Source: Myxococcota bacterium (lineage in GTDB: Bacteria > Myxococcota_A > Polyangia > Polyangiales > Polyangiaceae). Taken from it: a DNA stretch of 64,000 nucleotides. The number at the start of each line of letters is the position of its first letter. Within the stretch, counting starts at the first letter, position 1. Location: positions 12,914-76,913 of the forward strand of contig CAUJEM010000123.1 in assembly GCA_963169915.1 (NCBI GenBank). The letters are read 5' to 3'. The notes below the pieces were generated by a model that made no database searches, was not told the DNA's origin, and saw nothing but the letters and a program-made list of their open reading frames with translations. A program made the position numbers and the translations under genes. This document shows, in pieces, positions 18,623-35,236 of the stretch.

Positions 18623-18631
18623 GGGCGCGCA

Positions 18632-18655
18632 CGCCGCCACCTCCCCGTGGCGGCG
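18632..18655 (+). terminator. GC-rich hairpin between the anti-sigma gene and pgsB (possible terminator or attenuator)
   Basis: cgccgccac (18632-18640) pairs perfectly with gtggcggcg (18647-18655) across a 6-nt loop. No U-tract follows. Confidence 0.3.
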
Positions 18656-18687
18656 GCGGGGTACTAGGCGACCCCGGCAGGCATGGT

Positions 18688-19902
18688 ATGAAGCGCTCGA
18701 CCATGCTGCCGGTCGAGGTGCTCGCCCTCATGTCCCTTGGCCTCGCCGGAGCTTCAGGGGTGGAAGTGGCGCTGCACCGGCGCCGGCTCCGCCGTCTGGG
18801 CGTCCGCGTCCACGTCAACGGTACGCGCGGCAAGTCCAGCGTGACGCGGCTCATCGCCGCCGGCCTCCGCGAGGCTGGGGTGCGCTGCTGCGCAAAGACC
18901 ACGGGGACCTTGGCGCGCTTCATCCTCCCAGACGAGCGAGAGCTCCCCATCTATCGCCCCGCCGGCGCCAACATCATCGAGCAGAAGCGGATCGTTCAGG
19001 CGGCCGTCGAGTGCGGAGCGCAGGCCCTGGTCGTGGAGTGCATGGCGCTCCGGCCGGAGCTGCAGGCGCTGTGCGAGCGGAGCTTGATCTCCGCGACGCA
19101 CGCCGTCATCACCAACGCCCGCCCGGATCACCTGGAGGTGATGGGCCCGGGACCTCGGGACGTCGCGGCGGCCCTCGCGGGCATCACCCCGCGCGGCGGC
19201 GTGGTCTACACGGCGGAGCGCGAGCAGATCGACGTGCTGCGCGCCGCCGCCAAAGACCGCGGGGCGCGCCTCGTCGAGGTGGGCGAGCAGGACGTCGCCG
19301 AGGTGACGGCCGAGCAGCTCGCGAGGTTTCGCTACCGGGAGCACCCAGACAACGTCGCCCTCGCGCTGGCGGTGCTGAGCGATCTCGGCGCCTCTCGGGA
19401 GGTAGCGCTGCGCGGGATGCAGCGCGCCCAGCCGGATCCGGGGGCGCTCACGGAGCACCGCTTGGACTACTTCGGTCGGGAGCTGGTGTTCGCCAACGCC
19501 TTCGCGGCGAACGACCCGGTCTCCACCGAGCAGCTCTGGAGCGCCACCCTGGCGCGATACCCCGAGCTGCGGCCACGCATCGCCATCTTCAATTGTCGAG
19601 CGGATCGGGTGGAGCGCTCGCTCCAGCTCGGGGCCGCCGTCGGCTCCTGGCCCGCCGCGGACTACGTGCTGCTCATGGGAAGCGGGACGCACGTCTTCGC
19701 CCAGGCGGCCGAGCGCTCGGGCTTCGACGCCACGCGGCTCGAGAGCGTGGAGGGGCTGCGGGTGGAGGAGGTGTTCGAGCGGGTGATCTCCTTGGCGGGC
19801 ACGGGCGCCTTGGTGATGGGCCTGGGCAACATCGCCGACGAGGGCCTCGAGCTGGCTCGGTACTTCGCCAACCGCGCCTTGCCCGAAGGGAGGAGAGCAT
19901 GA
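18688..19902 (+). CDS. pgsB: Poly-gamma-glutamate synthase PgsB/CapB (Mur-ligase-like amide ligase)
   Basis: ATG 18688 (MKRSTMLPVEVL...). N-terminal TM, then VHVNGTRGKSSVTRLIAAGL (P-loop), then GANIIEQKRIV...ALVVECMALRPELQ, typical of PgsB. Confidence 0.9.
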   Translation: MKRSTMLPVEVLALMSLGLAGASGVEVALHRRRLRRLGVRVHVNGTRGKSSVTRLIAAGLREAGVRCCAKTTGTLARFILPDERELPIYRPAGANIIEQKRIVQAAVECGAQALVVECMALRPELQALCERSLISATHAVITNARPDHLEVMGPGPRDVAAALAGITPRGGVVYTAEREQIDVLRAAAKDRGARLVEVGEQDVAEVTAEQLARFRYREHPDNVALALAVLSDLGASREVALRGMQRAQPDPGALTEHRLDYFGRELVFANAFAANDPVSTEQLWSATLARYPELRPRIAIFNCRADRVERSLQLGAAVGSWPAADYVLLMGSGTHVFAQAAERSGFDATRLESVEGLRVEEVFERVISLAGTGALVMGLGNIADEGLELARYFANRALPEGRRA

Positions 19903-20357
19903 GTGAGTTGCTGACGCTCGCGGTGGGGCTAGGGCTCGTCGTGGGGCTGCTCTTCACGGAGCTGTTCGGGCTCACCGCGGGCGGGATGATCGTGCCGGGG
20001 TACCTGGCGCTCAGCCTGAATCGCCCGCTGGACGTGGGCCTGACGCTGGTGGCGGGGCTCTTCAGCTTCCTCTTGGTGCGCGCGCTGTCGTCCTTCACCT
20101 TGGTGTACGGCCGGCGGCGCACGCTCGCCATGATCTTGGTCGGATTCCTCGTCGGGTGGGGGCTGCGCCAGGTCGCGGTCGGCTTGCCTCACGCGGCGGA
20201 CGATCAGCTCTCGGTGATAGGCTTCATCATCCCCGGCCTCATCGCCATCTGGTTCGATCGCCAAGGGATCGTCGAGACGCTCGCGGGCGTCATCAGCGCC
20301 TCGGTGGTGGTCCGGCTCTTCCTCATCGTGCTCATCGGCGGAGAGCTGGTCCGATGA
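19899..20357 (+). CDS. pgsC: Poly-gamma-glutamate biosynthesis membrane protein PgsC/CapC
   Basis: 152 aa, four hydrophobic helices. LTAGGMIVPGYLAL and FIIPGLIAIWFDRQG resemble PgsC. ATGA overlap with pgsB. Confidence 0.9.
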   Translation: MSELLTLAVGLGLVVGLLFTELFGLTAGGMIVPGYLALSLNRPLDVGLTLVAGLFSFLLVRALSSFTLVYGRRRTLAMILVGFLVGWGLRQVAVGLPHAADDQLSVIGFIIPGLIAIWFDRQGIVETLAGVISASVVVRLFLIVLIGGELVR

Positions 20358-21502
20358 AGAGCCTCTACTGGCGCCCGCCGGGGGTCTCGCGCGCCGCGCT
20401 CTTGCTCATCGCCAGCGTGTCGGTGGTGGCGCTCTCTGCGGCCGAGCACCTGAAGGTGCGCCGCGAGCAGCCGTACTACGAAGTGAAGCTGCAGGCGGCG
20501 CGGCTGGCCGAGCGCGGCATGCAGGCCATCAAGGCGGAGAAGCGCCGGCTCGGCATTCATCCGGACTTGGAGATCGATCCCGCGGACACTGGGATGATCG
20601 GCGAGGCCATCACCCCGGTGACGGCCAACACGGGCTACTTGCTCGCCAAGCGGCGCAGCGTAGACCCCAATTTCGCGGCCATCATGGTCGAGCTGCTGGA
20701 GCGCGCGGGCGTCGAGCGTGGCGACAAGGTAGCGGTGGGCGTCTCGGGCTCCTTCCCCGCGCTCAACGTCGCCACCTTCGCGGCGCTGACGGTGCTCCAG
20801 GTGGAGCCCGTGGTCATCGCCTCCACGTCGGCGTCGGAGTGGGGGGCCAACCACGTGGAGTACCTCTGGCTCGACATGGAGCGGACGCTCGAAGCGGCGC
20901 ACCTCATCGGGTTTCGCTCCATCGCGGCCTCGCTCGGCGGGATCGACGACCGTGGCTATGGAATGTCCAAGGAGGGACGACAGTACCTCGAGCGCGCCGT
21001 GGAGCGGGCGCACATCCCCCTCATCAGCGTGACGGGCCTCACCGACAGCGTAGAGCAACGCATGGCCATCTACCAAGAGCACGCTGGCGGGCGCGCGTAC
21101 AAGGCGTACATCAACGTCGGGGGTGGCGCGGCCTCCGTCGGTACCCACGTCGGCAAGAAGCAGTTCAAGCCGGGGCTCAACACCTCACCGCCCCGCGGCG
21201 CCGCGCTGATGGACTCCGTGATGTACCGCTTTGCGCTGCGGGACGTCCCCGTCATTCACGTGACGAGCATCGACGAGCTGGCCAAGCACTATGAGCTCGC
21301 GGCCCCGCCTCCCGGGAAGGCGCCCGTCGTCGGACAAGGGGGCATCTACGCCAAGCTCGAGTATCGACGCTGGCTCGCGGCGCTGGGGCTCGTCGTGGTG
21401 CTCGCCACCATGGTGTTCTTCATTCGCTCCGACCGCGGGCATCGGCTGCTGCGCGTGCGGGGGCGCGTCCTCGCGTCCGATCAGCCCCAGAAGATGATTT
21501 AG
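20354..21502 (+). CDS. Poly-gamma-glutamate system protein (PgsAA-type third component, not CapA/PgsA metallophosphatase-like)
   Basis: 382 aa with N- and C-terminal TM anchors. ATGA overlap with pgsC. Size, topology and position match the PgsAA-type family found with pgsBC in non-Bacillus lineages (recalled from memory, not searched). Confidence 0.65.
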   Translation: MKSLYWRPPGVSRAALLLIASVSVVALSAAEHLKVRREQPYYEVKLQAARLAERGMQAIKAEKRRLGIHPDLEIDPADTGMIGEAITPVTANTGYLLAKRRSVDPNFAAIMVELLERAGVERGDKVAVGVSGSFPALNVATFAALTVLQVEPVVIASTSASEWGANHVEYLWLDMERTLEAAHLIGFRSIAASLGGIDDRGYGMSKEGRQYLERAVERAHIPLISVTGLTDSVEQRMAIYQEHAGGRAYKAYINVGGGAASVGTHVGKKQFKPGLNTSPPRGAALMDSVMYRFALRDVPVIHVTSIDELAKHYELAAPPPGKAPVVGQGGIYAKLEYRRWLAALGLVVVLATMVFFIRSDRGHRLLRVRGRVLASDQPQKMI

Positions 21503-21560
21503 CGAGCAGAGCGCCAGCTCCGGGTTGTCGAGGGGGCCGCTCTCGCGGCATCCTACCGTC

Positions 21561-22538
21561 ATGTCCCGAGCCCTGGTCGTCGCCTTGAGCGCCTGGTGTG
21601 CAGCCTGCAGCCTCTCGTCGGGTGGCGGCGCGCCGGAGGGTGGCGCTGGGAGGGGCGCCGCGGCCGGGGAAGGGGGCGCTGGAGGCGGGAGCGGGGGCCT
21701 GAGCGGCGGCGGCGGCGTGAGCGGGAGCGGCGGCGGCACCGGGCGAGACGTCTGTGCGCGGTGGCGGGCGGATCGTGAAGAGCTCTCCGAGGGGAGCTGG
21801 AGCGGTGACGTGAGCCGCTGCACGGCGGGAGATACGGACGCCGCGGGGCGCGCTCGGGCGCTCAAGCTCGTCAACCTCTACCGGTTCTTGGCTGCGCTGC
21901 CGCCCGTCACGACGAGCCCTGAGTACGACGGACAGGCTCAAGCCTGCGCGCTGCTGATGGACGCGAACGGGCAGCTGTCGCACAGCCCACCCCAGAGCTG
22001 GACCTGTTACTCCGCCCTGGGCGCGCAGGCCGCGGGTCAGAGCAACATCGCCTCGACGCCCGGGGTCGCCGCCGTCGATCTCTACATGGCAGATCCAGGC
22101 AACCCCACCACCATCGGACATCGACGCTGGATCCTCTCCAACTCACTCGGCCCCATCGGGCTCGGGAGCACGCGGCGCTACTCCTGTATGCTCGTGATCG
22201 GCGGCAGCGGCGCCGCCGGCGCGCCGTGGACGGCGTTCCCGCCGCCGGGGGAGGTGCCGCTCCAGCTCTTCTCGATCTCCTACGCGTCGCTCGACTCTAC
22301 GGGCTGGACGCTGCAGAGCGACAGCATCCCGCTGGACGCCGCGGAGGTCCAGGTCTCGGAGGGGGGAGCGCCCCTGCCGGTGAGCGTGACGCAGCTCGCG
22401 GGTGGCTTCGGGAGTCGCTACGCGCTGCGCTTCAACCCACAGGGCTGGAGCGCCGAGGCGGGGCACACCTACGCGGTCCGCGTCACGGGGCTGAGCCAGC
22501 CCATCGAGTACGACGTCGAGGTCGTGGACTGCCGTTGA
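21561..22538 (+). CDS. CAP/SCP/PR-1-like domain lipoprotein with a Gly-rich linker
   Basis: ATG 21561 (MSRALVVALSAWCAAC lipobox). Gly-rich spacer. Motifs LVNLYRFLAALPPV ... GHRRWILSNSLGPIGLG resemble the bacterial CAP superfamily. Confidence 0.65.
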   Translation: MSRALVVALSAWCAACSLSSGGGAPEGGAGRGAAAGEGGAGGGSGGLSGGGGVSGSGGGTGRDVCARWRADREELSEGSWSGDVSRCTAGDTDAAGRARALKLVNLYRFLAALPPVTTSPEYDGQAQACALLMDANGQLSHSPPQSWTCYSALGAQAAGQSNIASTPGVAAVDLYMADPGNPTTIGHRRWILSNSLGPIGLGSTRRYSCMLVIGGSGAAGAPWTAFPPPGEVPLQLFSISYASLDSTGWTLQSDSIPLDAAEVQVSEGGAPLPVSVTQLAGGFGSRYALRFNPQGWSAEAGHTYAVRVTGLSQPIEYDVEVVDCR

Positions 22539-22542
22539 GCGG

Positions 22543-22567
22543 CCCGCGGCGATCCTGTCGCCGCGGG
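22543..22567. terminator. Bidirectional hairpin terminator between convergent genes
   Basis: cccgcggcga (22543-22552), 5-nt loop, tcgccgcggg (22558-22567). Perfect 10-bp stem in the 48-bp gap between the stops at 22538 and 22587. Confidence 0.5.
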
Positions 22568-22586
22568 GCGCTCGAGACGTGGCGGC

Positions 22587-23297
22587 TCAGGGCGCCGAGG
22601 TGAACGTCGCGGTCCGGCGCTGTGAGGCCTCGATGGAGCTCTCACGATCCAGCCCAATGTCGGTGGTGCCCTTGCGGGTGCGCCACAGGGTGATGGTCAG
22701 GTCACAGGCCTTGGGCTCCGAGCCGCCCGTGGAGTCGAGCTGTCCCTTGGCAATGACGAAGCTCCCGCTGTCGCCGGGGATGCTGAACTTCTTGCTGAAG
22801 ATGCAATCGCCCTTGACCTCCATCCGCATGGAGTCTCCTCCCGTCGCGGGGTCCCAGGTCACGGTGAGGTCGTCGCTCGCGCGAGAGGGGCTGGTGGTGG
22901 GCAGCGCTCCGATGGTGAAGGGGGCCGGTAGAGAGACGGTGTTGTCCGGGGCGTCCTCGTCCTCACCACGCAGCAGGCTGACCGTGAAGGGCGTGTCTTG
23001 CGCGTTGGTGGCGAACTGCGCCAGGTAGACGCCCTCGGACTCCGCGTGCATGTCCTTCGTCTCTTCCGCAGCCTTGGCGACGAGCTTGTCGCCGCCCTCG
23101 AGCATGACGTAGGTGTTGCTCTCGTCGCCGCCGACGCGCAGCGTGGCCTCCACCTCCGAGGAGCCGCTGGCGGAGCCGGTGACCACGATGGTCGCGGCGA
23201 TGCCCTTGGTGCGGATGTTGGCGGAGGAGACGGTCTCCTTCGAGCAGCCGGTGGCGGCGAGGGCGAGGGCCGAGAGTGCGAAAAAGCCAAATTTCAT
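22587..23297 (-). CDS. Lipoprotein, unknown function
   Basis: MKFGFFALSALALAATGCS lipobox. Beta-rich, Ser/Thr/Gly-rich mature part. Confidence 0.75.
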   Translation of the reverse strand: MKFGFFALSALALAATGCSKETVSSANIRTKGIAATIVVTGSASGSSEVEATLRVGGDESNTYVMLEGGDKLVAKAAEETKDMHAESEGVYLAQFATNAQDTPFTVSLLRGEDEDAPDNTVSLPAPFTIGALPTTSPSRASDDLTVTWDPATGGDSMRMEVKGDCIFSKKFSIPGDSGSFVIAKGQLDSTGGSEPKACDLTITLWRTRKGTTDIGLDRESSIEASQRRTATFTSAP

Positions 23298-23556
23298 GAG
23301 AGCCTCCTAGTGTGTTGAGCCTCAAGCAAACAGCGGGCCAGCCGCTCAGCTTAGCCAATTTCCCGTGACGCTGACCACTGGGTACGACGCCAGGGTCAGC
23401 CTGGGTGTGGCCCAAGAGCGACAGTGCGCGGGCCGCTGCCTAGCGCTCCCAAAGAAGAAAAGGCAGGGTCACGTCCCTGCGGGGCCTCGCCTCGGGGCGC
23501 CCGGCGTGACGTCACGGTGACGCTCCCGCCTCCCGCTGGCTCGGGGCGCTGGCGCG

Positions 23557-24156
23557 CTAGGAGGGCTCGACCGTTGGCGCCGCGTCCGCTGCGGGGCTCT
23601 CGCGGAGCAGTGCCCGGAAGCCCGCTCCCAGGGCCCAGACGAGCACGAGGGGGCTCAGCCGCAGCAGCCAGCCGCCGAGCTCCCGCTGCTGAGCCATGGA
23701 AAACGAGCCGCACAACAAGGCCTTGTAGTTCGAATAGAAGGTCCCGAGCGCGAACACCATGGAGGTGCCCTGAATGGCGAGGGCGGCCTTGGCCACGAAG
23801 GGCAGGCGCGGGAAGCCCGCCGACATTGCGAAGCCGGCGCTCAGCAGCGAGAGGTGCAGCAGTCCGTCCGCGACGTCGGACGAGCCGATGGCGTCGACCG
23901 AGCGAGGGATCATCCAGAAGTTGACCGTGATGATGCCGAGCGCGAAGCCTCCGAGCCCGCGCGGATCGACGAGCGCCAGGAGTCTCGGACGTGATCTGCC
24001 CGCCAGCCATCCCAGCATGAACCAGGCGGGCATCTGCAGCAGCATCACCCGCGGCATGCGCTCATCCAGCCAGTCGTCCACGGGGCTGAGCCACAGCGCT
24101 GCGGTGACGGCGAGCCAGGCGCCGCGCAGGAGCCAGGTGAGCGCCGTCCCCTTCAT
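23557..24156 (-). CDS. Multi-pass membrane protein coupled to Sco1 (possible oxidase assembly factor)
   Basis: ATG 24156 (MKGTALTWLLRGAWLAV...) overlaps the Sco1 stop (ATGA). About 5-6 hydrophobic helices. The ORF extension to 24432 was rejected. Confidence 0.65.
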   Translation of the reverse strand: MKGTALTWLLRGAWLAVTAALWLSPVDDWLDERMPRVMLLQMPAWFMLGWLAGRSRPRLLALVDPRGLGGFALGIITVNFWMIPRSVDAIGSSDVADGLLHLSLLSAGFAMSAGFPRLPFVAKAALAIQGTSMVFALGTFYSNYKALLCGSFSMAQQRELGGWLLRLSPLVLVWALGAGFRALLRESPAADAAPTVEPS

Positions 24157-24809
24157 GGTCGAGCTCCTGGCTCGAGCTCGGCGCGAGCCTCCGAGGGGAG
24201 CGCGGCGGTGAGCTCCCGCAGCTCCGCCGCCATGTCCACGGGCCTCATGTCCGGCGAGTAGATGCGGACGATCTTCCCCGAGGGGTCGAGCAAGAAGGCG
24301 TCGAGCCCGTGGTTGATGAGCCCGTCCTTGCGCCGGAAGATCCAGACACCCAGGCGCGCCATCGTGGCGTCCGAGTCCGGCCCGACCAGGGAGGCCATGG
24401 ACCACCCCTCGTGCGCTCCATGGGCTCGCCACATGGCGGCGAGCTGCTCTGGAGGATCATGATCGACCGACAGACTGATGACCTGCAGCTTCGACGGGAT
24501 GAGATCCTTCAAGAGGACCGACACCCGCGCGAGGTTGGACATCGCGATGGGGCAGCCGTCGGGGCAGCGCAGGTACATGGCTTGGACCAAGCGGTACCGG
24601 TCCGAGGGCGCCGCGACGTCCCACTGGGACCCCCGCTCGTCGATCACGGGGAGCGCAGGTGCTGGGCGCGGGATGGGCCCCGCCTCCAGCAGCGCGATGG
24701 AGAAGTTGGTGAACGCACGGAAGCCGTGCGTCCACCCTCCAATCAGCGCGACGGCGCAGGCAATGACGAGCAGAGGTGCTACGCCAGCCGCCCACGCCCG
24801 CGGCTTCAT
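24153..24809 (-). CDS. SCO1/SenC-family copper chaperone (thioredoxin fold)
   Basis: N-terminal TM anchor. Motif YLRCPDGCP (CxxxC) with a downstream His (LINHGLDAFLLD). ATGA overlap with the subunit I stop. Confidence 0.85.
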   Translation of the reverse strand: MKPRAWAAGVAPLLVIACAVALIGGWTHGFRAFTNFSIALLEAGPIPRPAPALPVIDERGSQWDVAAPSDRYRLVQAMYLRCPDGCPIAMSNLARVSVLLKDLIPSKLQVISLSVDHDPPEQLAAMWRAHGAHEGWSMASLVGPDSDATMARLGVWIFRRKDGLINHGLDAFLLDPSGKIVRIYSPDMRPVDMAAELRELTAALPSEARAELEPGARP

Positions 24810-26260
24810 GACGCTGGATCGGGGGAGGCACCCGCTTCGGGGGCTGCCCCGCGCCCCTTCACGACGGAGAAGCCGAAGCCGATGGCCCCGAGCAAGAACA
24901 CGATGGCAAAGGCTGCGCCCAACGTGGCGAGCGTAGCACCTTTCTCAGCCAGGCCACCGAAGGAGGCCGCTGCGTAGCTGGAGACGCGGCGCGGCAGGCC
25001 GCTCATCCCGCCGAGGTAGAACATCAGCAGGAAGCCATAGCCGCCGAGCAGCATGGTCACCAGGCTCCCCACCGCGAAGCGCTCCGCGGACGACTTGAAG
25101 AAGTCGTGCAGGAAGCCCATGAACATCAGCACGTAGCCCACCAAGAAGTAAGTGTGGAAGTGGCCAGGCACCCACAGCGTGTTGTGGAAGTAAGTGTTGA
25201 CCATGATGGTGGAGTCGACGACCGCGCCCACCCCGCCCACGGCCCAGCCGATGGCGCCGAGCGCGAAGGCCAGCGGGGTGAAGCTCCACTTGACGCCAGA
25301 CTTGTAGACCTGGCTGCCGATCCCGAAGATGGACACCGCGGTGGCAGGGAGGGCCGAGCCGTAGGAGGCGAGCTGCCCGATGATGTGCAGCGCCTTCACC
25401 TGGGCAAAGTCCATGTAGAGGTGGTGGAAGTAGGCGAAGAGCACGAACATCAGGGTGGCGTTCCACGCGATGGCCGTCACGCGGTTGACACCCCACGGGC
25501 GGCCGGTGAAGCGCGGCAGCACGTAGTAGATGGCGCAGAGCCCGCAGTAGATGCACACGTTGACGATCGTGTGACCGAACATGAACATCGTGTTTTTCAG
25601 CAGGAGCGGGTCCAGCTCCACGCTGGGGGACAGCCACTTGAGCAGATAGAGGATGAGCGTGGCGGCGCCGGACAGCGTCCCCAGCGTGCCGGCGATGGCG
25701 CACATGGCGGCGATGAGCACCTGCGCGGGCAGGGGCTCCTCCGGCGTCTTGCCTGCGATGTACTCCCACGCCAGCAGCCGCTTGGCCCCCCACTTGGCCG
25801 CGAGCGCGCGGAGGATGTCCAGCTGGAAGATGAGCCACGCCACGCCCATGAGGATGAGCGCGATGATGGACGCGCCGGTGGCCCAGCTCGGCCAGGCCGG
25901 TCGCACGAAGGGCAGCGGGTAGAGCGCGTACCAGCCGGGGCCGAAGCCGCCGAGCAGCGTGGCAGCGAGCAAGACCACCGCCCCCACCACGAACAGGCCC
26001 CAGGCGGCCCAGGAGACGCCCAAGCTCACCTTGCAGCTATGGGAGGTGATGTACCAGATGACGGCCAGACCCCCGGAGAACAGCGCGCCGGCCATGCCCA
26101 GCCCGTGCATGGTCATGATGGCGTAGAAGGTGGTCGGCGAGAGGCTGACCTGAGCGCCCTGCGCCAAGCGCATGGTGATGCCGAGCGTCACCATCACCAG
26201 GAACACGAGGAAGGCCGTGAGCAGCCAAGCAATCGTCGCTTTTCGAATACTCTTTTCCAT
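24806..26260 (-). CDS. Heme-copper oxidase superfamily subunit I with Asn in place of the cross-link Tyr
   Basis: 484 aa, about 12 TM. His ligands in TMHGLG, FGHTIVN, YFHHLY and PGHFHTYF. Helix VI reads H230-T-I-V-N234 rather than H-P-x-V-Y. Confidence 0.9.
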   Translation of the reverse strand: MEKSIRKATIAWLLTAFLVFLVMVTLGITMRLAQGAQVSLSPTTFYAIMTMHGLGMAGALFSGGLAVIWYITSHSCKVSLGVSWAAWGLFVVGAVVLLAATLLGGFGPGWYALYPLPFVRPAWPSWATGASIIALILMGVAWLIFQLDILRALAAKWGAKRLLAWEYIAGKTPEEPLPAQVLIAAMCAIAGTLGTLSGAATLILYLLKWLSPSVELDPLLLKNTMFMFGHTIVNVCIYCGLCAIYYVLPRFTGRPWGVNRVTAIAWNATLMFVLFAYFHHLYMDFAQVKALHIIGQLASYGSALPATAVSIFGIGSQVYKSGVKWSFTPLAFALGAIGWAVGGVGAVVDSTIMVNTYFHNTLWVPGHFHTYFLVGYVLMFMGFLHDFFKSSAERFAVGSLVTMLLGGYGFLLMFYLGGMSGLPRRVSSYAAASFGGLAEKGATLATLGAAFAIVFLLGAIGFGFSVVKGRGAAPEAGASPDPAS

Positions 26261-26272
26261 CTTGCCCTCGCC

Positions 26273-26800
26273 TCACTCCACGGTCAGGGAAGCCACCATG
26301 TTCTGGTGCATGATGCCGCAGAACTCCATGCAGAGGACGTGGTAGGTCCCCGGCTTGTCGAACACCATGCGCAGGCGGTTGGTGTAGCCCGGCATCGCCT
26401 GGGTCTGCGCCAGGATATGACCGTCGTCGTCGTACACGCCGAAGCCGTGCGTGACGTCCGAGGTCGTGACCGCGAACTCGATGGTGGCGCCCTGCGGGAC
26501 CACCACGGGGCCTGGCGCGCCCTCGCGCTCCATCTCCCAACGCCACATGTGCCCTGTCACCTTGACGACCGCGGCCGGGGTGGTATCGGCCAGGGCCTTG
26601 TAGGGCGTATAGAGCAGCGTGGTGCTGAACGTCCCGAGCAGCACGAGCGCGAGCACCATCGCGTAGTACTTTCGGACCTTGTAGACGACTTTGTTGCCGT
26701 CCGGCACCCTCTCGCGTGCGCCTCGCATCACGAAGAAGGCGACCGCGAAGATGGTCAGACTCAGGATGAGGGTTATCAGACCCGCGATTTGGACAATCAC
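26273..26800 (-). CDS. Heme-copper oxidase subunit II with a CuA cupredoxin domain
   Basis: 175 aa. Two N-terminal TM helices. CuA ligands in VTHGFGV and HVLCMEFCGIMHQNM. Confidence 0.9.
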   Translation of the reverse strand: MIVQIAGLITLILSLTIFAVAFFVMRGARERVPDGNKVVYKVRKYYAMVLALVLLGTFSTTLLYTPYKALADTTPAAVVKVTGHMWRWEMEREGAPGPVVVPQGATIEFAVTTSDVTHGFGVYDDDGHILAQTQAMPGYTNRLRMVFDKPGTYHVLCMEFCGIMHQNMVASLTVE

Positions 26801-26880
26801 AGCAGCGATCCTTTCACGTCGTCGGTGAGGTGCTCAGGGAGCCAAAGCCGGCGGCAGCCTAGACGAAGGCGCGGGCGAAT

Positions 26881-26897
26881 GTAAGCGGAACGTAAGC
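26881..26897. promoter_or_regulatory. Direct hexamer repeat GTAAGC-N5-GTAAGC upstream of the oxidase genes (candidate regulator site)
   Basis: gtaagcggaacgtaagc has 11-bp centre-to-centre spacing, about 80 bp upstream of the subunit II start, inside a locally GC-poor patch. A related cttacgtaa lies at about 27046-27055. Confidence 0.2.
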
Positions 26898-27217
26898 CTG
26901 GTCGGCTATCTCCGGGGGGACGTCGAGAGTCGTGAAATGAGGTATTTCTTGCGCTCAACAAGGGATGAAACCGTGGGACATGTTCCAGATGGGAGCAGTT
27001 GGAACTATGACACTACGTCTCGTGAGTAAGAGTCTTTCCTTACGTAACGCGAGCCTGTCTGGGGCTGTCGCCCCTGGTTGAGCCCACGGTGGGCTCCACC
27101 CGCCTCAAACGACGAAGCCCCGCGGATGCTCCAGTCGAGAGAGACCGGGAGCACCCCACGGGGCACCGTCGAGCAGCAGGGCGGGACGACCGCCGCGCCA
27201 CTAGCTGAGAGCGCGGG

Positions 27218-27619
27218 TCACTTGCCGAAGCCGCGGACCACCTTGACCAAACCGGCCACCACCTTGGGCTTGTCGTTGAGCTGCGGGAAGGCCGTCATGA
27301 TGGGGCTCTTGCCCACCGCGGCGCCACCACCCAGGATGGTCTTGGAGATGTGGTCGTCGTCCACCGAGCCTTGCCAGGCCTTGTCGGTGAAGTCCCGCGG
27401 CTTCGGATCAGCGGTGGCGCCGGGGCCATCGCCCTTGCCGCTCTCACCGTGACACACGGTGCACTGCTCGCTGAAGAAGGCCTTGGCGGCCTTCATGTCG
27501 ACCTTGTCACCGCCGGCGGCCGCGGTGTCTTCCCCGCCTCCGCTAGCTTGTTCCGTGCTCTTCGAGCAGGCGGCCACCGAGGTGAGCGCCACGATGGCGA
27601 GCAAATACTTGATCTTCAT
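27218..27619 (-). CDS. Monoheme c-type cytochrome lipoprotein
   Basis: ATG 27619 (MKIKYLLAIVALTSVAACS), preceded by aggaagg. Heme motif CTVCHG. A distal Met candidate lies in SPIMTAFP. Confidence 0.85.
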   Translation of the reverse strand: MKIKYLLAIVALTSVAACSKSTEQASGGGEDTAAAGGDKVDMKAAKAFFSEQCTVCHGESGKGDGPGATADPKPRDFTDKAWQGSVDDDHISKTILGGGAAVGKSPIMTAFPQLNDKPKVVAGLVKVVRGFGK

Positions 27620-27659
27620 ATCAGCCTTCCTATTTCCTGTTGTCGATGGGTGGGCCCAG

Positions 27660-28499
27660 TCAGCCCACGAGATCCGAGTGAGAGAGGCGCCGCTGCGCGA
27701 GCGCGAGCGTGAGGCTCCCGAGCAGCAGTGGCCAGGCGACGCCAACCACGAAGGTGAGCTTCGCACCGAGCGTGTTGGCGAGCCAAAAACCTACCGGACC
27801 CAGCACGGAGAGCTCCGGGTCCACCGCGCTCAGGATGGCGAGCCGGGCGCTCTCCACCGGGTTGCTGGCGGCGAGCGTGAACACCGCCAGCGGCGCCAAC
27901 TTCACGCGGAGCAGCACGCCGATGAGCGCGAAATCATGGAGGGCCGTGGCGCCTGCCCACGCCACCATGGCCAGCACGGTGGCCCGCTCCGGGCTCCGCG
28001 CGTAGGCCGAGATGAGGAACCCGAGCCCAATGAACGCCCAGCCGAGCGCGACGGTGACCGCGAGGGTCCGCAGTACGATGGAGACGAGCTGCGCGTCTTC
28101 ACCCCCCAAGGCGAGCCCCGTGACGAGCGCCACGAGCAGCAGCGCGAGCAGGGGGCCGACCACGACCGCGAAGCGCGAGACGACGACCCCCCCGAACCAG
28201 TCCGCCCGCTTGACGGGCTGCGTGAGCATCAGCTCGAAAAAACCGCTCTGACGGGCGCGCACCACGGTCTGGCTGGTCGCGATGAGCGCCACCAAAGGGA
28301 TGGTGAGCACCACGGCGTTGGAGACGTTGAGGATGACCCGAGAGACCCCGGTGAAGCCGAGCACGCTGCTCTCGCGCAAGCCGAGCCAGATGAAGAGCCC
28401 GAAGACCGCGAGGTAAATGACCGCCGTGAAGGCCAGCCACCGCGAACGGAGCGCCTCGGCCATCTCTAGCCTGAACATCACACGGGCAGAACTCGTCAT
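27660..28499 (-). CDS. nosY: NosY, ABC-2-type permease of the NosDFY system
   Basis: ATG 28499 inside ORF 27660..28625. Six hydrophobic helices. N-terminus FRLEMAEALRSRWL resembles NosY. Located in the nos cluster. Confidence 0.8.
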   Translation of the reverse strand: MTSSARVMFRLEMAEALRSRWLAFTAVIYLAVFGLFIWLGLRESSVLGFTGVSRVILNVSNAVVLTIPLVALIATSQTVVRARQSGFFELMLTQPVKRADWFGGVVVSRFAVVVGPLLALLLVALVTGLALGGEDAQLVSIVLRTLAVTVALGWAFIGLGFLISAYARSPERATVLAMVAWAGATALHDFALIGVLLRVKLAPLAVFTLAASNPVESARLAILSAVDPELSVLGPVGFWLANTLGAKLTFVVGVAWPLLLGSLTLALAQRRLSHSDLVG

Positions 28500-28742
28500 G
28501 CTGTACTCTGTCGATCCAGGGCGCGCCGTCACCTGCCGCGTGACGGGCGCCCCCAGTTCAGGGGACGCGCGGCAGGCGGTAGAGTGAGCGAGCCCCTGGG
28601 CGTGCAGGGCGCTGGCCAAGGGCAAGGGGGATAAGACTGCGGCGCAGCCCTAGCCCCAAGCTCGGCGCGTGTCTACACCGGGCGCCGGCGGGGGCCCAGG
28701 GAGCTGGAGGCGCCGCGACGAGGACTCGCCGGGCGCCCGGCG

Positions 28743-29144
28743 TCACGGAGCCCCCTTCTTCTTCGCGGCGAGCTGGCCGAGCATCTCCTCCCAGCTCACC
28801 CCGCCCTCCGCTCGGGCCTCGAAGCCGAAATCCATCGGGGTGCTGGCGCCGTCGTGGTAGCGCGCCGTCTTGGCGTCCAGCCATCGAGCGCTGCTGGCGT
28901 CGCGGACCCACAGGTGTGAGGCCTGACGCGTCTTCATCCAGCTCACGAGGCAGCCGATGTCATCGAAGTAGAAGCGGTCCTGGCTCTCCGCGGCCTGGGC
29001 TGCATAGCGCTGGTCGCTCACCAGCATCTTACAGTGGGCGCAGGGCTCCTTGCCCCAGACCGGATCCGTGGGGCCCTCGATCTTGGCGCACGCGTCCAGG
29101 GCGAGCAGGCCGAGCAGGCCCACCAGGCAGCGTCGGCGGTTCAT
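28743..29144 (-). CDS. nosL: NosL-like copper-binding lipoprotein
   Basis: 133 aa. Lipobox LLALDAC. Motif CAHCKM. ATGA overlap with the nosF stop. Confidence 0.75.
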   Translation of the reverse strand: MNRRRCLVGLLGLLALDACAKIEGPTDPVWGKEPCAHCKMLVSDQRYAAQAAESQDRFYFDDIGCLVSWMKTRQASHLWVRDASSARWLDAKTARYHDGASTPMDFGFEARAEGGVSWEEMLGQLAAKKKGAP

Positions 29145-30049
29145 GAGCCCACCACCTTGAGGTGCGGGACGGGGCGCTGGCTGGGGTGGGACATGGCAAG
29201 ATCCTCCACGGGGAGCACGGAGAGGTCCACGATGCTCCGCTCGTGCTCCCGCAGGAGCAGGGTGACGAGCTCGAGCTTGCGCTCCTGGCTCACCTGGATG
29301 ACGACGCGACCGAGGCCCGTTCGCTCGAAGCCGCGCGCGAGCAGGGCGGTGTCGTCCGCGCCGTCGCGGAGCGTGACCTCCACGCGGAAGGTCGCCAGCT
29401 CGCGCAGCAGCTCCTGCGTGGGCGCGTCGCGCACCAGGCGGCCCTCTCCGAGCTCCACCACCCGCTCCACGATGGCGCGCACCTCCTCGACGCGGTGGGA
29501 GCAGAGCACCACGATGCTGGACGGCGGCCGCGTCGCGAGCTCCTCGAAGAAGGCGGCGCGCGCGGCGGTGTCGAGGTTGGCGGTGGGCTCGTCACAGACG
29601 AGGATGGGCGTCTCCGCCGCGAGCGCGAACGCCGCCAGCAGCTTCTGCTTCATGCCGCCCGACAGATCACGGAAGCGCTTGTCGCGGCAGCGGTCTTGGG
29701 TCAGCCCGAGGCGCTCGGCGCGCTCCCAGATGGCCTGCTCGGGCTTGTCTCTGAGCGCGGCGCAGGCGCGCACCACCTCCGCGACCGGGGCCTCGATGGG
29801 CGGCGCGATCTGCGGGATGTAGGCCACCGTCCGCAGCGCCGTCTCCGGCTCCAGGGCGACGTCGCTGCCCATGATGGTGACCTTGCCGTCCACCCGGATC
29901 AGGCCCAGCAAGGCACGGAGCAGGGTGGTCTTGCCGGAGCCGTTGGAGCCGACGAAGGCGACGCGCTCTCCCTTGTCGATGGTGAGGGAGACGCGGTCGA
30001 GCGCCAGCACCGGCCCGAAGCGCTTGGTGACGTCTGCGATGGTGATCAT
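29141..30049 (-). CDS. nosF: NosF, ABC transporter ATP-binding protein
   Basis: ATG 30049 (MITIADVTKRFG). Walker A GSNGSGKTT, signature LSGGMKQK, Walker B ILVCDEPT. ATGA overlap with the nosD stop. The ORF extension to 30754 was rejected. Confidence 0.9.
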   Translation of the reverse strand: MITIADVTKRFGPVLALDRVSLTIDKGERVAFVGSNGSGKTTLLRALLGLIRVDGKVTIMGSDVALEPETALRTVAYIPQIAPPIEAPVAEVVRACAALRDKPEQAIWERAERLGLTQDRCRDKRFRDLSGGMKQKLLAAFALAAETPILVCDEPTANLDTAARAAFFEELATRPPSSIVVLCSHRVEEVRAIVERVVELGEGRLVRDAPTQELLRELATFRVEVTLRDGADDTALLARGFERTGLGRVVIQVSQERKLELVTLLLREHERSIVDLSVLPVEDLAMSHPSQRPVPHLKVVGS

Positions 30050-31353
30050 GGGGTAGCGAGCTGGGGAGGGTACATCTTGGGAGAAGGATCGACGAGCAGT
30101 CGCTTGGCCGAGAGGACGGGCACCGCGTAGGCGATGGCATCCATGACGCTCATGGCGGCTGTCCCGTAGAAGAACTTCAGGGTGGGGTGCGCCTCCGTCA
30201 GCTGGCTGGAGAGCGCCTTGACCTCGTAGGCGACGTCGCCCGTCCCGTCCCCGTCGAGATCGTAGCCCTCGTAGTCGCTGAAGTAGTTGCCCTTCAAGTC
30301 GACACCGAGCGCGTTGCCGCCGCCGTCCACCTCGATGACGACGGCGTTGTCGCGGAAGGCGTTGCCGTAGAGGTGCAGCCCCCGCTCCGAGGCGTGCAGG
30401 CGCATGCCCACGTCGTTGAGCGCGAGCACGTTGCCTTCGAACTTGACCGCGTCCGCCGGGGTCCGGGGCGTGTTGTCGAGGTAGGTGCCGGTGGTGTTGG
30501 CCACCATCCAGTTGCCCTTCAGCTCGATGGCGTCGCTGTCCTTGAAGCCCAGCCCGATACCGGCCGCGCCGCGCGCCCCCGCCAGCACGTTGCGCTCCAC
30601 CTTCAAGCGCATGCTGTACATGACGAAGACGCCGACCACGTTGCCGCGAAAGCGGCTGTCTCTCACGACGGAGTCCTTGGCGTACATGAAGTGCGAGCCG
30701 TAGCGGCTCCGCTCCACGGTGTTGCGCTCCAGCGTGGCGCGGCTCGTGTACCACACCACGAGATCTCTAGAGTGGATCATGCGGCAGTCACGGACGATGG
30801 AGTCGTGCGCCTCCCACAGCTTGATGCCGTCCCCCCGCAGCTCCTCGTCGCTGTCGTAGCCGGTGACGTTCACGCGCTCGAGCACGCAGTGGCGGCAGGC
30901 CTGGAGGGAGATGCCAAACAGGGTCTCGGCGATGTCCACCCGTGAGATCCTCACGCGCTCACCGGAGGCCTTCAGGCCGGAGTCTTCGTGCGTGTGACGG
31001 TGACCGGAGCGGCGGATGGCGAGGTCCTCGATGACGACGTCGTGCGCGTCGATGGTCACCACCGTGTCGCGGCCCGTCCCGCGCAGGAGCGCCCCCGGTG
31101 CTCCGCGCAGCGCCACGGGGCGCTTGATGACGAGGTCGCCTTCGAGCTGCCCCTCGATGACGAGGTCTTTGGGGCCGGCGGGATCTGCGACGAGCTGCTG
31201 GAGCTCTTGGAACGAGCGCACCACCAGCCCCTGGGGAGGGGAGGGGGGCGGCGCCCCTGGCGCCGCGCTCGCGGTCGCCTCCCCCCGTGACGGCGCCGCC
31301 GAGCCGCCGAGCAGCGCGGCCCCCACCCCCAGGGCGGCGAGGCCGCGCCTCAC
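30046..31353 (-). CDS. nosD: NosD, periplasmic right-handed beta-helix protein for CuZ maturation
   Basis: GTG 31353 overlaps the stop of the upstream gene (GTGA) and gives a signal peptide (VRRGLAALGVGAALLGG). Repetitive beta-helix pattern (N.V..N..GI.L) runs throughout. Confidence 0.85.
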   Translation of the reverse strand: MRRGLAALGVGAALLGGSAAPSRGEATASAAPGAPPPSPPQGLVVRSFQELQQLVADPAGPKDLVIEGQLEGDLVIKRPVALRGAPGALLRGTGRDTVVTIDAHDVVIEDLAIRRSGHRHTHEDSGLKASGERVRISRVDIAETLFGISLQACRHCVLERVNVTGYDSDEELRGDGIKLWEAHDSIVRDCRMIHSRDLVVWYTSRATLERNTVERSRYGSHFMYAKDSVVRDSRFRGNVVGVFVMYSMRLKVERNVLAGARGAAGIGLGFKDSDAIELKGNWMVANTTGTYLDNTPRTPADAVKFEGNVLALNDVGMRLHASERGLHLYGNAFRDNAVVIEVDGGGNALGVDLKGNYFSDYEGYDLDGDGTGDVAYEVKALSSQLTEAHPTLKFFYGTAAMSVMDAIAYAVPVLSAKRLLVDPSPKMYPPQLATP

Positions 31354-32096
31354 GAGCCGCTGCTCTCGCTCGGGAGCACCATGGCGCGCGGGCAGACCTT
31401 GTTGCAGGTCTTGCCCTCTTGGCAGTGTGCGCACACCTGAGATCGTAGGGCGTTGGCGAGGATGGCGCAGCCCACGCCGGCGAGCGCCAGCCAGAAGCCG
31501 AGCTCCGGCCGTGCGAAGGTCTCGAACTGGCCGATCTGGCCGTTGCCGAACATCTGAGGTGTGAACGCGCTGATCCGCAGCGGCGCCTTCGGATCCAGGT
31601 TGTGACCGAAGGAGTAGAGCCAGTAGAAGCTGTCCGCCAGGAAGCCTAGCGGGAACAAGAGGGCAGGGATGGCGATCAGGCGATTGAGCTTCTTTCCAGA
31701 GAAGGCCATGAGCACCAAGGTGATGACGCCGATGGCGGCGACGCCGTAGCCGGCGAGCGCGCGCTCCATGGGCGCGGCCTTCGCGAGGGAGGCCATCCCG
31801 ATGTAGTGGTTGAGGAGATCGATCTCGTGCACGTCACCGCCCATCTCCGTGAGCGAGATGACGAGCTGCAGTCCCTTCGGATACTGTGGCGCGTAGAGCC
31901 AGAACTTCCACCAAGGGAGGAAGAAGGAGTAGGCGAAGAGGCCTGCGGCCGCCGCCGCCAGCGCCAAGACGAGCCACCGGGCCCAGTCCCACGGCGGTCG
32001 GGTGACCGCCGTGGGCTCGGTGCCGGAGTTGACGACCCGCAGGTGGAGCCGTTGGGCTGCAGAGTGTTCCCCCTGAGGCGTCGTCAAGCTTTCCAT
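31350..32096 (-). CDS. nosB: NosB-like membrane protein with a C-terminal Cys cluster
   Basis: 248 aa, about 4-5 TM. Sits immediately downstream of a Sec-type nosZ, as nosB does in clade II clusters. C-terminal CAHCQEGKTCNKVCP (31389..31433). Confidence 0.65.
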   Translation of the reverse strand: MESLTTPQGEHSAAQRLHLRVVNSGTEPTAVTRPPWDWARWLVLALAAAAAGLFAYSFFLPWWKFWLYAPQYPKGLQLVISLTEMGGDVHEIDLLNHYIGMASLAKAAPMERALAGYGVAAIGVITLVLMAFSGKKLNRLIAIPALLFPLGFLADSFYWLYSFGHNLDPKAPLRISAFTPQMFGNGQIGQFETFARPELGFWLALAGVGCAILANALRSQVCAHCQEGKTCNKVCPRAMVLPSESSGS

Positions 32097-32118
32097 CGTA
32101 CGGCTGCTCTCTTTCTTG

Positions 32119-34107
32119 TCAGTTCTGCTTCGGCTTCACCAGGAGGTAGCCCAGCATCTCCAGGTGGAGGGCCGAGCAGAACTCCGTGCAGTAGAAGGGG
32201 TAGGCGCCCGGGACATCCGCCGTGAAGGTGATGTTCGCGGTCTTCCCGGGCTCGAGGCTCGAGTGGACGTTGTACATGTTGAAGGTGATGCCGTGCGTCT
32301 GGTCTTCGGCCGTCTCCACGTTGCTGACGTGGATGGTCACCACGTCGCCCTGCTCCACCTCGATGCGATCCGGGGTGAAGTGGCTGCGGACCGCCGTCAT
32401 GAAGACCTCCACTCGGTTGCCGTTGCGCACGATGCGCTCCTTGCCGCCGACGACCGCGTTGGGATCCGGCTCCGCGCCGGTGACAGGGTTGGTGCCGGGC
32501 TTGTACACCTTGACGGGCTTGATCTTGTCGGCCTTGATCATCTGGGCGTAGTGGGGCTCGGAGTTGGGCATGGGCATGTCGGCCAGCAGCCGCATGGCCG
32601 GCCCCTCGATGCCGACGAGCTGGAAGTTCTGCGGGTAGAGCGGCCCTACCGGCAAGAAGCGATCCATCGACATCTTGTTCATGGCCACGACGTACTTGCC
32701 GTCCGGGCTCACGGTGTCCCCCTCGGCCGACACGAGGTGGCCGATGTTGTAGTGGACCTTCAGCTTCTCGACCGGCTTCGTGTAGTCCCGGTAGGACCAC
32801 TTGGCGACCACGCTCTCGATGAACACCGAGGTGTACGCGTTGCCCTGGTCGTCGAACACGGTGTGGAGCGGCCCGAGGCCGATCTCCACCTGGCCGGCGA
32901 TGGCTTCCTTGAAGGCCATGATGGGCAGCCCGTAGGCGTCCTTGCCCTCGAACTTCTTGTCGGCGATGAGCTGCTTCATCTTGGCGACGTCGTAGATGGT
33001 GGTGTGCGTGTCGAGCTTGCCGCCGACCACCACGTGCTTGCCGTCAGGGGTGACGTCGCAGCCGTGCGGGCTCTTGGGCTCGCCCACGAGCGTGAGCACG
33101 CCCTCGGAGCCGCTGACGTCCATCATCAGCACGCGCATGCCGGCGATGGTCTTCGTCTTACCGGCTGCCACCAGCTCTTCGGCCTTCTTCCAGTTGATGA
33201 CGTGGAGGTAATCCATGTCGTTCTGGGAGGCGCCGGACTCGATGGGCGGCTTGCCGTCGAGCGTGCCGCCGACCGCCAGCTCGGTGTTGAAGGAGTTGAT
33301 GTACATCCAGCCGTCGGAGTCCAGCTTGCCGGCGTCCGCCAGATCCTGCGTGTAGGGCGGCAGCTCCATGGCCCAGCTCTTGTCCTTGTCGATCCGGCCC
33401 TTCTCGCGGTCGAACTTCCAGAACACGGCGACCCCGCGGTACTTGGCCGCGTACTCCTCGATGGGAGCGTACTCACGCCCCAGCGGCGCTGGGTACTGGC
33501 TGGTCTCGATGATGTACTCGGTGTTGGGGGTCACGAAGGCGCCGCCGTGATCGGACGCGGCGAGCGGGTTGGCGACGATCTGCTTGGTGGTGAAGTCCTC
33601 CAAGTCCACCACGGCGACGCGGGCGTTGGCCTTGTCGTTGACGAACAGGTACTTGCCGTCGTAGTCGCCCTTGGTCTCCGAGAGGTTCGGGTGATGGACG
33701 TCGGCCCAGCGGATCTTGCGGCCGCCTTGGTTGCCTTGGTCGAGGATGCTCTCCGTGTCGTCCCCGAAGCCCCAGCCCTGCCAGGACTCTGGCGTGAACA
33801 CGCCGATGACCTTCAGCATCCGCATGGAGGGGACGCCGATGACGTTGACGTTCCCGGACTGCCCACCGGAGGCGAACAGGTAGTACTCGTCCATCTTGCC
33901 GGTGGGGACGTAGGTCTTCAGCGCGGCTTCGACGTCCGCCTCCGAGAGGTCACGCGCCGCCATCAGGTCTTTGACGGACGCCGAAGCGCCAAGGTTGCCG
34001 GTGGCCGCTTGCTTGTTGGCTTCGTGGCGGTTTTCGCAGCCGACGGCGAGGAGCGTGATGAGCCCCGTGGCGAAGAGTGTGGAACCGATGAGGGTATAGG
34101 CGCGCAT
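32119..34107 (-). CDS. nosZ: Nitrous-oxide reductase NosZ, Sec/lipoprotein-type (clade II)
   Basis: 662 aa. N-terminus MRAYTLIGSTLFATGLITLLAVGC has no twin-Arg. DVHHPN beta-propeller motif. C-terminal CuA site FYCTEFCSALHLEM. Confidence 0.95.
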   Translation of the reverse strand: MRAYTLIGSTLFATGLITLLAVGCENRHEANKQAATGNLGASASVKDLMAARDLSEADVEAALKTYVPTGKMDEYYLFASGGQSGNVNVIGVPSMRMLKVIGVFTPESWQGWGFGDDTESILDQGNQGGRKIRWADVHHPNLSETKGDYDGKYLFVNDKANARVAVVDLEDFTTKQIVANPLAASDHGGAFVTPNTEYIIETSQYPAPLGREYAPIEEYAAKYRGVAVFWKFDREKGRIDKDKSWAMELPPYTQDLADAGKLDSDGWMYINSFNTELAVGGTLDGKPPIESGASQNDMDYLHVINWKKAEELVAAGKTKTIAGMRVLMMDVSGSEGVLTLVGEPKSPHGCDVTPDGKHVVVGGKLDTHTTIYDVAKMKQLIADKKFEGKDAYGLPIMAFKEAIAGQVEIGLGPLHTVFDDQGNAYTSVFIESVVAKWSYRDYTKPVEKLKVHYNIGHLVSAEGDTVSPDGKYVVAMNKMSMDRFLPVGPLYPQNFQLVGIEGPAMRLLADMPMPNSEPHYAQMIKADKIKPVKVYKPGTNPVTGAEPDPNAVVGGKERIVRNGNRVEVFMTAVRSHFTPDRIEVEQGDVVTIHVSNVETAEDQTHGITFNMYNVHSSLEPGKTANITFTADVPGAYPFYCTEFCSALHLEMLGYLLVKPKQN

Positions 34108-34154
34108 GCTGGGTCCTTCCTACTTGGGGTTACGGTGCGCTCGGTCGCGCCCAG

Positions 34155-34170
34155 TGCAAGGCATGTGCCG
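34155..34170 (-). promoter_or_regulatory. Sigma-54 (-24/-12) promoter candidate for nosZ
   Basis: Minus strand reads CGGCACATGCCTTGCA against consensus TGGCACG-N4-TTGCW, with correct GG-N10-GC spacing. It lies 48-63 nt upstream of the nosZ ATG, and GGAAGG precedes the ATG. Confidence 0.45.
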
Positions 34171-35180: not shown

Positions 35181-35199
35181 GCGCCAACCGTGGAGTGAG

Positions 35200-35236
35200 C
35201 GACCGCGGCGGGGGGGAGCACCTCCGGCCGCGGTCG
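35200..35236. terminator. Bidirectional hairpin between convergent genes
   Basis: cgaccgcggc (35200-35209) pairs with gccgcggtcg (35227-35236) across a 17-nt loop. It lies between the stops at 35180 and 35258. Confidence 0.4.

Follow-up and report, generated by a model that had tools for sequence, protein, structure and literature searches.

The stretch analyzed here, hereafter the window, comprises 64,000 nucleotides (64 kb) from a Myxococcota bacterium of the Polyangiaceae (contig CAUJEM010000123.1, positions 12,914 to 76,913 of the forward strand). Four consecutive genes on its minus strand encode, in this order, a CuA-type subunit II (norS), a heme-copper catalytic subunit I (norY), a Sco copper chaperone (senC), and a CtaG-like membrane protein (orf1). 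It is reasonably probable that this set constitutes a complete heme-copper enzyme of the sNOR type together with its assembly factors, and that its function is the reduction of nitric oxide (NO). The sNOR enzymes are a proposed NO reductase family that is biochemically unproven, and the window set is a further member of this already described family and no novel type of enzyme. The genes, and the element that follows them, are:

26273..26800, minus strand: norS-type subunit II, 175 amino acids (Pfam COX2, 42.8 bits; NCBIfam CoxB; motif read)
24806..26260, minus strand: norY-type catalytic subunit I, 484 amino acids (Pfam COX1, 163 bits; residues read)
24153..24809, minus strand: senC/Sco1-type copper chaperone, 218 amino acids (Pfam SCO1-SenC, 34.4 bits)
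23557..24156, minus strand: orf1 membrane protein, 199 amino acids (homologs in related loci)
23463..23480, minus strand: terminator-like GC (guanine-cytosine) hairpin, then a T-run (consensus match only)

The stop of subunit I and the start of Sco, as well as the stop of Sco and the start of orf1, are coupled by ATGA overlaps. Gene calls on a second, independent assembly of the locus yield identical models. The open reading frames (ORFs), coordinates, six His, N234, CuA site, ATGA overlaps, and gap of 417 base pairs (bp) to the upstream genes reported in the original prediction were all re-derived. The terminator-like hairpin is located 77 nucleotides beyond the orf1 stop and, judging from its sequence, probably marks the operon end.

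In ammonia oxidizers, the notation for the sNOR genes is norSY-senC-orf1 (PMC4940428), norSY having formerly been named coxB2A2 (bioRxiv 10.1101/765727). The active-site residue is given as Asn for sNOR and for CuANOR/bNOR, and eNOR is listed with Gln, gNOR with Asp, and cNOR/qNOR with Glu (PMC8756737 Table A4, after Hemp and Gennis 2008). This bears out the Asn substitution mentioned for sNOR in the original prediction. The window combines an Asn at His+4 in helix VI, a CuA subunit II, and the norS-norY-senC-orf1 order. The description of the enzyme as a candidate unconventional NO reductase stands insofar as the protein belongs to an Asn-only clade, and gives way insofar as this is the already described sNOR with its canonical module (PMC4940428, PMC11214002).

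Active site, CuA subunit, and assembly factors

Subunit I displays the signature of the heme-copper superfamily, six His on a 12-helix core: H52, H230, H279, H280, H367, and H369 are all conserved, and the heme-propionate Arg pair R424/R425 is intact. Its AlphaFold2 model (predicted local distance difference test, pLDDT, 92; predicted template modeling score, pTM, 0.92) exhibits 12 membrane helices, and Foldseek analysis of this model reports a template modeling (TM) score of about 0.8 with subunit I of A- and B-family enzymes, for 16-22% identity. The codons at 25559-25573 (minus strand) read CACACGATCGTCAAC, corresponding to H230-T-I-V-N234. In HMMER alignments to the bovine, Aquifex, and Thermus oxidases (FGHPEVY, FGHPVVY, and GHPIVY), N234 stands opposite the cross-link Tyr and aligns to Y237 of the ba3 oxidase. 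Both the residues and these alignments agree with the proposal of a CuA-type heme-copper enzyme devoid of the cross-link Tyr. N234 is invariant among 88 homologs and, likewise, in 29 out of 29 full-length Asn-type representatives. The invariants confined to the Asn-type clade are N234, D349, N355, and Y371. The clade-specific D349 and N355 belong to the helix IX-X loop, and Y371 (window positions about 25148-25150), also invariant in the Asn clade, lies four residues past the proximal His of the catalytic heme, at a position that is mostly Met (6/9) in Tyr-type relatives.

Other residues that might replace the cross-link Tyr were judged by conservation and helix register. The position of Y277 varies among the representatives, being Tyr, Phe, Trp, Met, or Val. 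Y238 is a Tyr in 25 of the 29 representatives, but its place, opposite ba3 L241 in the alignment, is two turns of the helix (eight residues) below H230. At the cross-link position of cbb3-type enzymes (HH-6), the window protein has V273 instead of Tyr. On these grounds, Y277 and Y238 are no convincing candidates for a cofactor shared by the whole family. Y245 is conserved and corresponds to Y248 of the ba3 K path, a residue common to the Tyr-type enzymes.

Subunit II comprises two predicted N-terminal membrane helices followed by a cupredoxin domain. Its CuA ligands (H118...C157-x-E159-x-C161-x3-H165-x2-M168) are invariant in 82/82 homologs. The Sco protein is anchored by a single membrane segment and carries a CPDGC motif followed further on by a His. 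Regarding orf1, the family is characterized by an invariant FWMxPRSxD motif, a Cys (C149), and a Gln (Q157). When its members are scanned singly, 22 out of 31 weakly match DUF1404 and 15 out of 31 match Caa3_CtaG; the Aquificaceae protein reaches 30.5 bits with the latter (cut-off 27.7) over the C-terminal half of the profile, and the window orf1 itself stays below threshold (DUF1404, E = 0.03). In Thermomicrobium roseum, the place that Sco and orf1 have elsewhere is taken by a Caa3_CtaG gene of full length (174 bits). An hhalign comparison of the orf1 family profile with this single Thermomicrobium CtaG is not significant (probability 1.3%), and the relationship rests on the Pfam matches of individual orf1 members. 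From these matches we read orf1 as a putative relative, reduced in length, of the oxidase assembly factor Caa3_CtaG. As compared with the Bacillus-type Caa3_CtaG (PF09678), the family spans about 190 residues instead of about 290 and matches profile positions about 105-236 of 237, with only some members exceeding the Pfam cut-off. By analogy with the Bacillus CtaG, orf1 probably helps metallate the catalytic subunit, and the presence of two assembly factors, Sco for CuA and the CtaG-like orf1, suggests that the B site would hold copper. The orf1-CtaG link slightly improves the annotation of the entire sNOR family and yields this prediction of the B-site metal.

Phylogeny and distribution of the module

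A search of 1.84 billion cluster representatives returned 74 proteins at E <= 1e-30. When the full-length sequences among them are aligned with MAFFT, all 29 proteins with at least 218 bits (32-45% identity), as well as those of Ruegeria and Thermomicrobium, exhibit HxxxN, and the next tier (at most 164 bits, 28-33% identity) exhibits HP[VI]VY, the B-family motif with its Tyr. A neighbor-joining tree of the library representatives, which contains no sequences of ammonia oxidizers, bNOR, nNOR, eNOR, or gNOR, splits the Asn-type from the Tyr-type proteins with 100/100 bootstrap support and groups the window protein with the Ruegeria protein inside the Asn clade. The phylogenetic placement is thus in an Asn-only clade, outside the Tyr-bearing B-family oxidases. 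By labeling the homologs "cbb3-type cytochrome c oxidase subunit I", NCBI systematically misnames these sNOR-family proteins, which pair with a CuA subunit II and are devoid of cbb3 features.

Two distant relatives of subunit I, P0331 (470 residues) and P0363 (476 residues), are devoid of most metal ligands, H230 being replaced by Glu or Ile and the HH pair by VA or TF; they look like heme-copper oxidase homologs lacking the binuclear center. These two proteins are all that could be invoked for the idea that the window module is itself a decaying or non-functional paralog, for which nothing specific speaks. This idea is hardly credible: the metal ligands, the CuA site, R424/R425, both assembly factors, and the translational coupling are intact, the GC content at third codon positions (GC3) is 0.92, and an identical protein sequence is found in several independent assemblies.

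A genome scan with one genome per GTDB species identified 267 species with a relative of the sub-clade to which the window protein belongs. The locus counts given hereafter cover the best 80 of these 267 genome matches, all 80 being metagenome-assembled genomes (MAGs). They are labeled as Myxococcales/Polyangiaceae, Gemmatimonadales, Acidobacteria, Bacteroidetes/Chitinophagales, and several proteobacterial classes, and also as Spirochaetia/Leptospirales, Aquificaceae, Verrucomicrobia, and Kiritimatiellia. As analyzed by tblastn, the four-gene order is kept in 77/80 loci; Sco lies 3' of subunit I in 77/80, and an orf1 homolog is present in 79/80. The flanking genes beyond the module are not conserved. 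The nearest relatives, at 73% identity, belong to MAGs of 59-61% GC labeled Kiritimatiellia, in which synteny ends at the module. For these relatives (L001, L002, and the P0002 cluster), the difference from the window, of about 70% GC, suggests either lateral transfer or mis-assigned bins. Judging from gene order and distribution, the module behaves as a self-contained, putatively laterally mobile unit.

The nos cluster and other neighbors

Upstream of the module lies a nos cluster of the clade II (Sec-type), identified from NCBIfam and Pfam matches and gene calls, the final gene of which encodes a cytochrome c and precedes subunit II by 417 bp:

27660..34107, minus strand: clade II (Sec-type) nos cluster (NCBIfam, Pfam, gene calls)
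32119-34107, minus strand: nosZ (TIGR04246, 835 bits)
31350-32096, minus strand: NosB-like membrane protein, 248 amino acids (gene call; no Pfam/NCBIfam match)
30046-31353, minus strand: nosD (TIGR04247, 335 bits)
29141-30049, minus strand: nosF (Pfam, gene call)
28743-29144, minus strand: nosL (Pfam, gene call)
27660-28499, minus strand: nosY (Pfam, gene call)
27218..27619, minus strand: monoheme cytochrome c, 133 amino acids, with the lipoprotein-type signal MKIKYLLAIVALTSVAAC (Pfam Cytochrom_C)
26801..27217, minus strand: spacer of 417 bp between the cytochrome c gene and subunit II (sequence read)

The usual nos gene order is D-F-Y-L; here nosL stands ahead of nosY, and the NosB-like protein possesses a Cys-rich tail, CAHCQEGKTCNKVCP. 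The 133-residue cytochrome c is a candidate electron donor to NosZ and/or the neighboring CuA. The spacer contains an AT-rich stretch at about 26880-27060 within a genome of about 70% GC; a simple scan of it reports no sigma-70 consensus and no terminator. From its base composition and position, the spacer probably provides the sNOR module with a promoter of its own. The lower total GC of the nos-sNOR region raised the possibility of a recent horizontal import, which finds no support, as the GC3 there equals that of the rest of the window (0.87-0.92 for the module genes).

The same nos-sNOR adjacency is found in another assembly of the same organism. A tblastn analysis with all nos proteins returned no match to any of them, nosZ included, within 10 kb in the 80 related loci, and the adjacency is particular to the window genome, not a trait of the sNOR family. 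In the 64-kb window, no nir, nar, or further nor gene was found. The original prediction had joined the enzyme and NosZ into a functional module converting NO to nitrous oxide (N2O) and then to N2. Its basis is the adjacency itself, and the claim is undercut by the count of nosZ in the related loci (0/80), by the 417-bp AT-rich spacer, and by the lack of nir in the window. As read from the gene layout of this genome, a shared NO -> N2O -> N2 unit, perhaps supplied by the lipoprotein cytochrome c, would nevertheless be plausible.

Genes related to N-oxides recur next to the module in other genomes. Rrf2 regulators adjoin it in 5/80 loci and in Ruegeria, their best named matches being NsrR or RirA, below the equivalog cut-offs. 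NnrS is encoded in five closely related acidobacterial loci, a true NarH in 2/80, and formate/nitrite transporters at the Ruegeria, Thermomicrobium, and L026 loci. Upstream of subunit II, NsrR-like words are not enriched (79 loci), and a TTG-N8-CAA motif occurs in 12/79 loci for about 5 expected; it is absent from the window and was judged uninformative. At one locus (L086:7637-9241, plus strand, on a 2.6-Mb contig), a 534-residue "Lactonase" β-propeller encoded directly upstream was considered as a clade III L-NosZ and rejected, as it returned no model match.

This neighborhood bears on the possibility that the enzyme performs a non-respiratory detoxification of NO from a host, a competitor, or abiotic nitrite, independently of NosZ, the neighboring genes being there by chance or through a recent insertion of the mobile module. 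Such a role would fit a self-contained module whose flanks vary across phyla, the 73%-identity relatives in MAGs of 59-61% GC with no synteny outside the module, the NsrR-like Rrf2 regulators and NnrS, which are typical of nitrosative-stress regulons, and the lack of nir and nar genes in 64 kb. However, electron entry from the respiratory chain at CuA and the retained channel residues are more in keeping with an energy-linked enzyme than with a plain detoxifier, and a module GC3 of 0.87-0.92, like that of the window, gives no sign of import. We consider a detoxification role distinctly improbable.

Directly downstream of the module, after the hairpin, a gene at 22587-23297 (minus strand) encodes a predicted lipoprotein of 236 residues with a signal ending in LAATGC and no family match. 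It also trails the module in the second assembly (L083), and no homolog was found in the 80 related loci. Upstream of the region and unrelated to the sNOR finding, 18616-21502 (plus strand) encodes a 428-residue protein with a Mur ligase middle domain and a 448-residue protein without family match; this pair may represent a capsule or poly-γ-glutamate-type unit. Long antisense or out-of-frame ORFs are abundant on both strands at 19000-38000 (up to 695 residues opposite nosZ). They are spurious and result from the 70% GC content; real genes were told from them by a GC3 above 0.8.

Proposed function and comparison with known systems

In the proposed mechanism, a cytochrome c that is periplasmic or anchored in the membrane, and that may be the lipoprotein cytochrome c encoded upstream, would deliver electrons to CuA; from there, by homology, they would pass to the low-spin heme on H52/H369 and then to the binuclear center, made up of the high-spin heme on H367 and the B-site metal on H230/H279/H280. 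The invariant Asn in place of the Tyr, which is the fourth electron source, would suit the reaction 2NO + 2e- + 2H+ -> N2O + H2O. Two-electron NO chemistry at an Asn site is the literature proposal for sNOR and bNOR. CuA would receive its copper from Sco, and the CtaG-like protein would probably help load the B site, then with copper. In the window genome, the neighboring clade II NosZ may use up the N2O produced, a coupling that is a local arrangement. Reduction of NO is the best-supported function because the Tyr required for four-electron O2 chemistry is lost, because bNOR, with the same site, is a demonstrated NO reductase (PMC11214002), and because neighbors related to N-oxides recur.

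Several observations weigh against this assignment. In the 80 loci, most module flanks are devoid of N-cycle genes, besides lacking nosZ. The sNOR proton channel has been described with a conserved Glu and no counterpart of ba3 S309 (PMC11214002); across the homologs, neither subunit I nor the membrane portion of subunit II has an invariant Glu, and S302 stands opposite ba3 S309, in a weak alignment only. Neither Nitrosomonas nor Nitrosospira is represented among the matches listed in the genome scan and the homolog searches, and the link to the name-giving sNORs of ammonia oxidizers runs through Ruegeria and the literature table. A 2024 PNAS paper still counts the family as predicted (PMC11214002), no assay of a purified sNOR is found in the literature searched, and a literature search returned no later biochemical paper on sNOR. 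In Nitrosomonas europaea, the main NO reductase is cNOR, and sNOR transcripts increase 2.7- to 10.8-fold upon O2 limitation, which has been taken to point to a terminal oxidase (bioRxiv 10.1101/765727). Lastly, the two copper-type assembly factors suggest a CuB like that of O2 reductases; to our knowledge, the characterized NO reductases use FeB. The proposal that the enzyme reduces NO is therefore retained as the best-supported function, and qualified in that activity of a purified sNOR is unreported and an O2 reductase role has been argued (bioRxiv 10.1101/765727).

These last points lead to the alternative that the enzyme is a B-type variant acting as a high-affinity, NO-tolerant terminal O2 reductase, serving microaerobic respiration or O2 scavenging and, next to the O2-sensitive NosZ, shielding N2O reduction instead of supplying it. 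Besides the oxidase role proposed for N. europaea sNOR from its induction at O2 limitation (bioRxiv 10.1101/765727), it finds support in the nearest relatives of known chemistry, which are B-family O2 reductases, in the Sco and CtaG-like factors, which suggest a genuine heme-copper (CuB) center, and in the retention of the K-path residue Y245 (ba3 Y248). All known O2-reducing heme-copper enzymes, however, need the His-Tyr cofactor (PMC11214002), and here an invariant Asn takes the place of the cross-link Tyr, V273 occupies the cbb3 position, and neither Y277 nor Y238 is universal in the clade. Moreover, bNOR shares these active-site residues and is experimentally shown to be an NO reductase. 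Although a serious rival from the literature, an O2 reductase is rather unlikely, the reduction of NO being the preferred reading.

As a rule, O2-reducing enzymes have CuB and NO-reducing ones FeB. If the reading as an NO reductase is combined with the copper-type assembly factors, one may tentatively conceive, as a rather doubtful extension, that the B site of sNOR is copper family-wide, making it a heme-copper NO reductase that forms in the window genome, together with NosZ and the lipoprotein cytochrome c, a nir-less NO -> N2O -> N2 scavenging unit. If true, a copper B site in sNOR would break the above rule.

Much of the N2O production in the environment may stem from several NO reductase families known by prediction, sNOR among them. 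The window locus leaves the knowledge of this family unchanged, and its additions are modest, namely the nos adjacency, the breadth and strictness of the module, the sharp boundary between the Asn and Tyr clades, and the CtaG-like orf1. The module is clean and complete for expression, with two subunits and two assembly factors that are translationally coupled, and the N2O-consuming enzyme encoded next door makes the question of NO versus O2 reduction slightly easier to frame.

Comparison with the other families of the superfamily led to the rejection of several memberships. C-family cbb3 oxidases have a helix VII Tyr and cytochrome c subunits, whereas position 273 of the window protein is Val and its partner is a CuA protein. 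The nNOR enzymes have a His/Met low-spin heme and a cNOR-like Glu, whereas the low-spin ligands here are H52 and H369 and no Glu is conserved. In gNOR, a B-site His is replaced by Asp and the CuA ligands are missing, whereas in the window enzyme the three B-site His are all in place and the CuA site is complete. The original prediction had counted gNOR among the CuA-containing families, which is incorrect, its subunit II being devoid of CuA ligands (PMC11214002). The ba3 oxidases of Thermus thermophilus (1EHK/3S8F) and Aquifex aeolicus (7DEG) share with the window enzyme the two-subunit architecture with CuA, the core of 12-13 helices, and the same six His (TM-score 0.78, about 20% identity with the window subunit I). 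However, ba3 Y237 is Asn and ba3 Y244 is Leu in the window, and membership in the B-family ba3-type O2 reductases (GHPxVY) was discarded, N234 replacing the Tyr and the Tyr-type relatives forming a separate clade. The eNOR of Rhodothermus marinus is, like the window enzyme, a B-family-derived CuA-type protein without the Tyr, and eNOR is the sole new family with a measured NO reductase activity (PMC11214002). It differs in its Gln site (PMC8756737 Table A4), its heme As, and its operons, which often contain ctaA; eNOR membership was rejected as it requires Gln, the window protein having Asn234.

The bNOR/qCuANOR of Bacillus (Calidifontibacillus) azotoformans, also CuA-type and B-family-derived, has the same Asn site as the window enzyme and was shown to be an electrogenic NO reductase (PMC11214002; PMC8756737). 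It is characterized by an Asn at the Tyr position, a ba3-like K channel, and a restriction to Bacillales; reported from this order only, it is not closely related to sNOR, the likeness being convergent (PMC11214002). The ammonia-oxidizer sNOR of Nitrosomonas europaea (NE0683-86) comprises four genes in the same order as in the window (PMC4940428). A tblastn search of plasmids identified a further locus on the megaplasmid NC_006569 of Ruegeria (Silicibacter) pomeroyi DSS-3 (195.7-198.8 kb), Silicibacter being among the original sNOR holders (PMC8756737 Table A4). Its order is Rrf2 regulator, subunit II, subunit I (FGHVFIN), SCO, a hypothetical protein of 189 residues, formate/nitrite transporter, and cytochrome c. 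The Ruegeria proteins share 36-38% identity with the window subunit I, 36% with subunit II, 27% with Sco, and 31% with orf1. The neighbors of the Ruegeria module are the Rrf2 regulator and the nitrite transporter, whereas the window module adjoins the nos cluster, and the window protein belongs to a separate large sub-clade (267 GTDB species) apart from the Ruegeria type. Taken together, the presence of senC-orf1 and the kinship with Ruegeria favor an assignment to sNOR over bNOR, as far as the latter is known from published descriptions.

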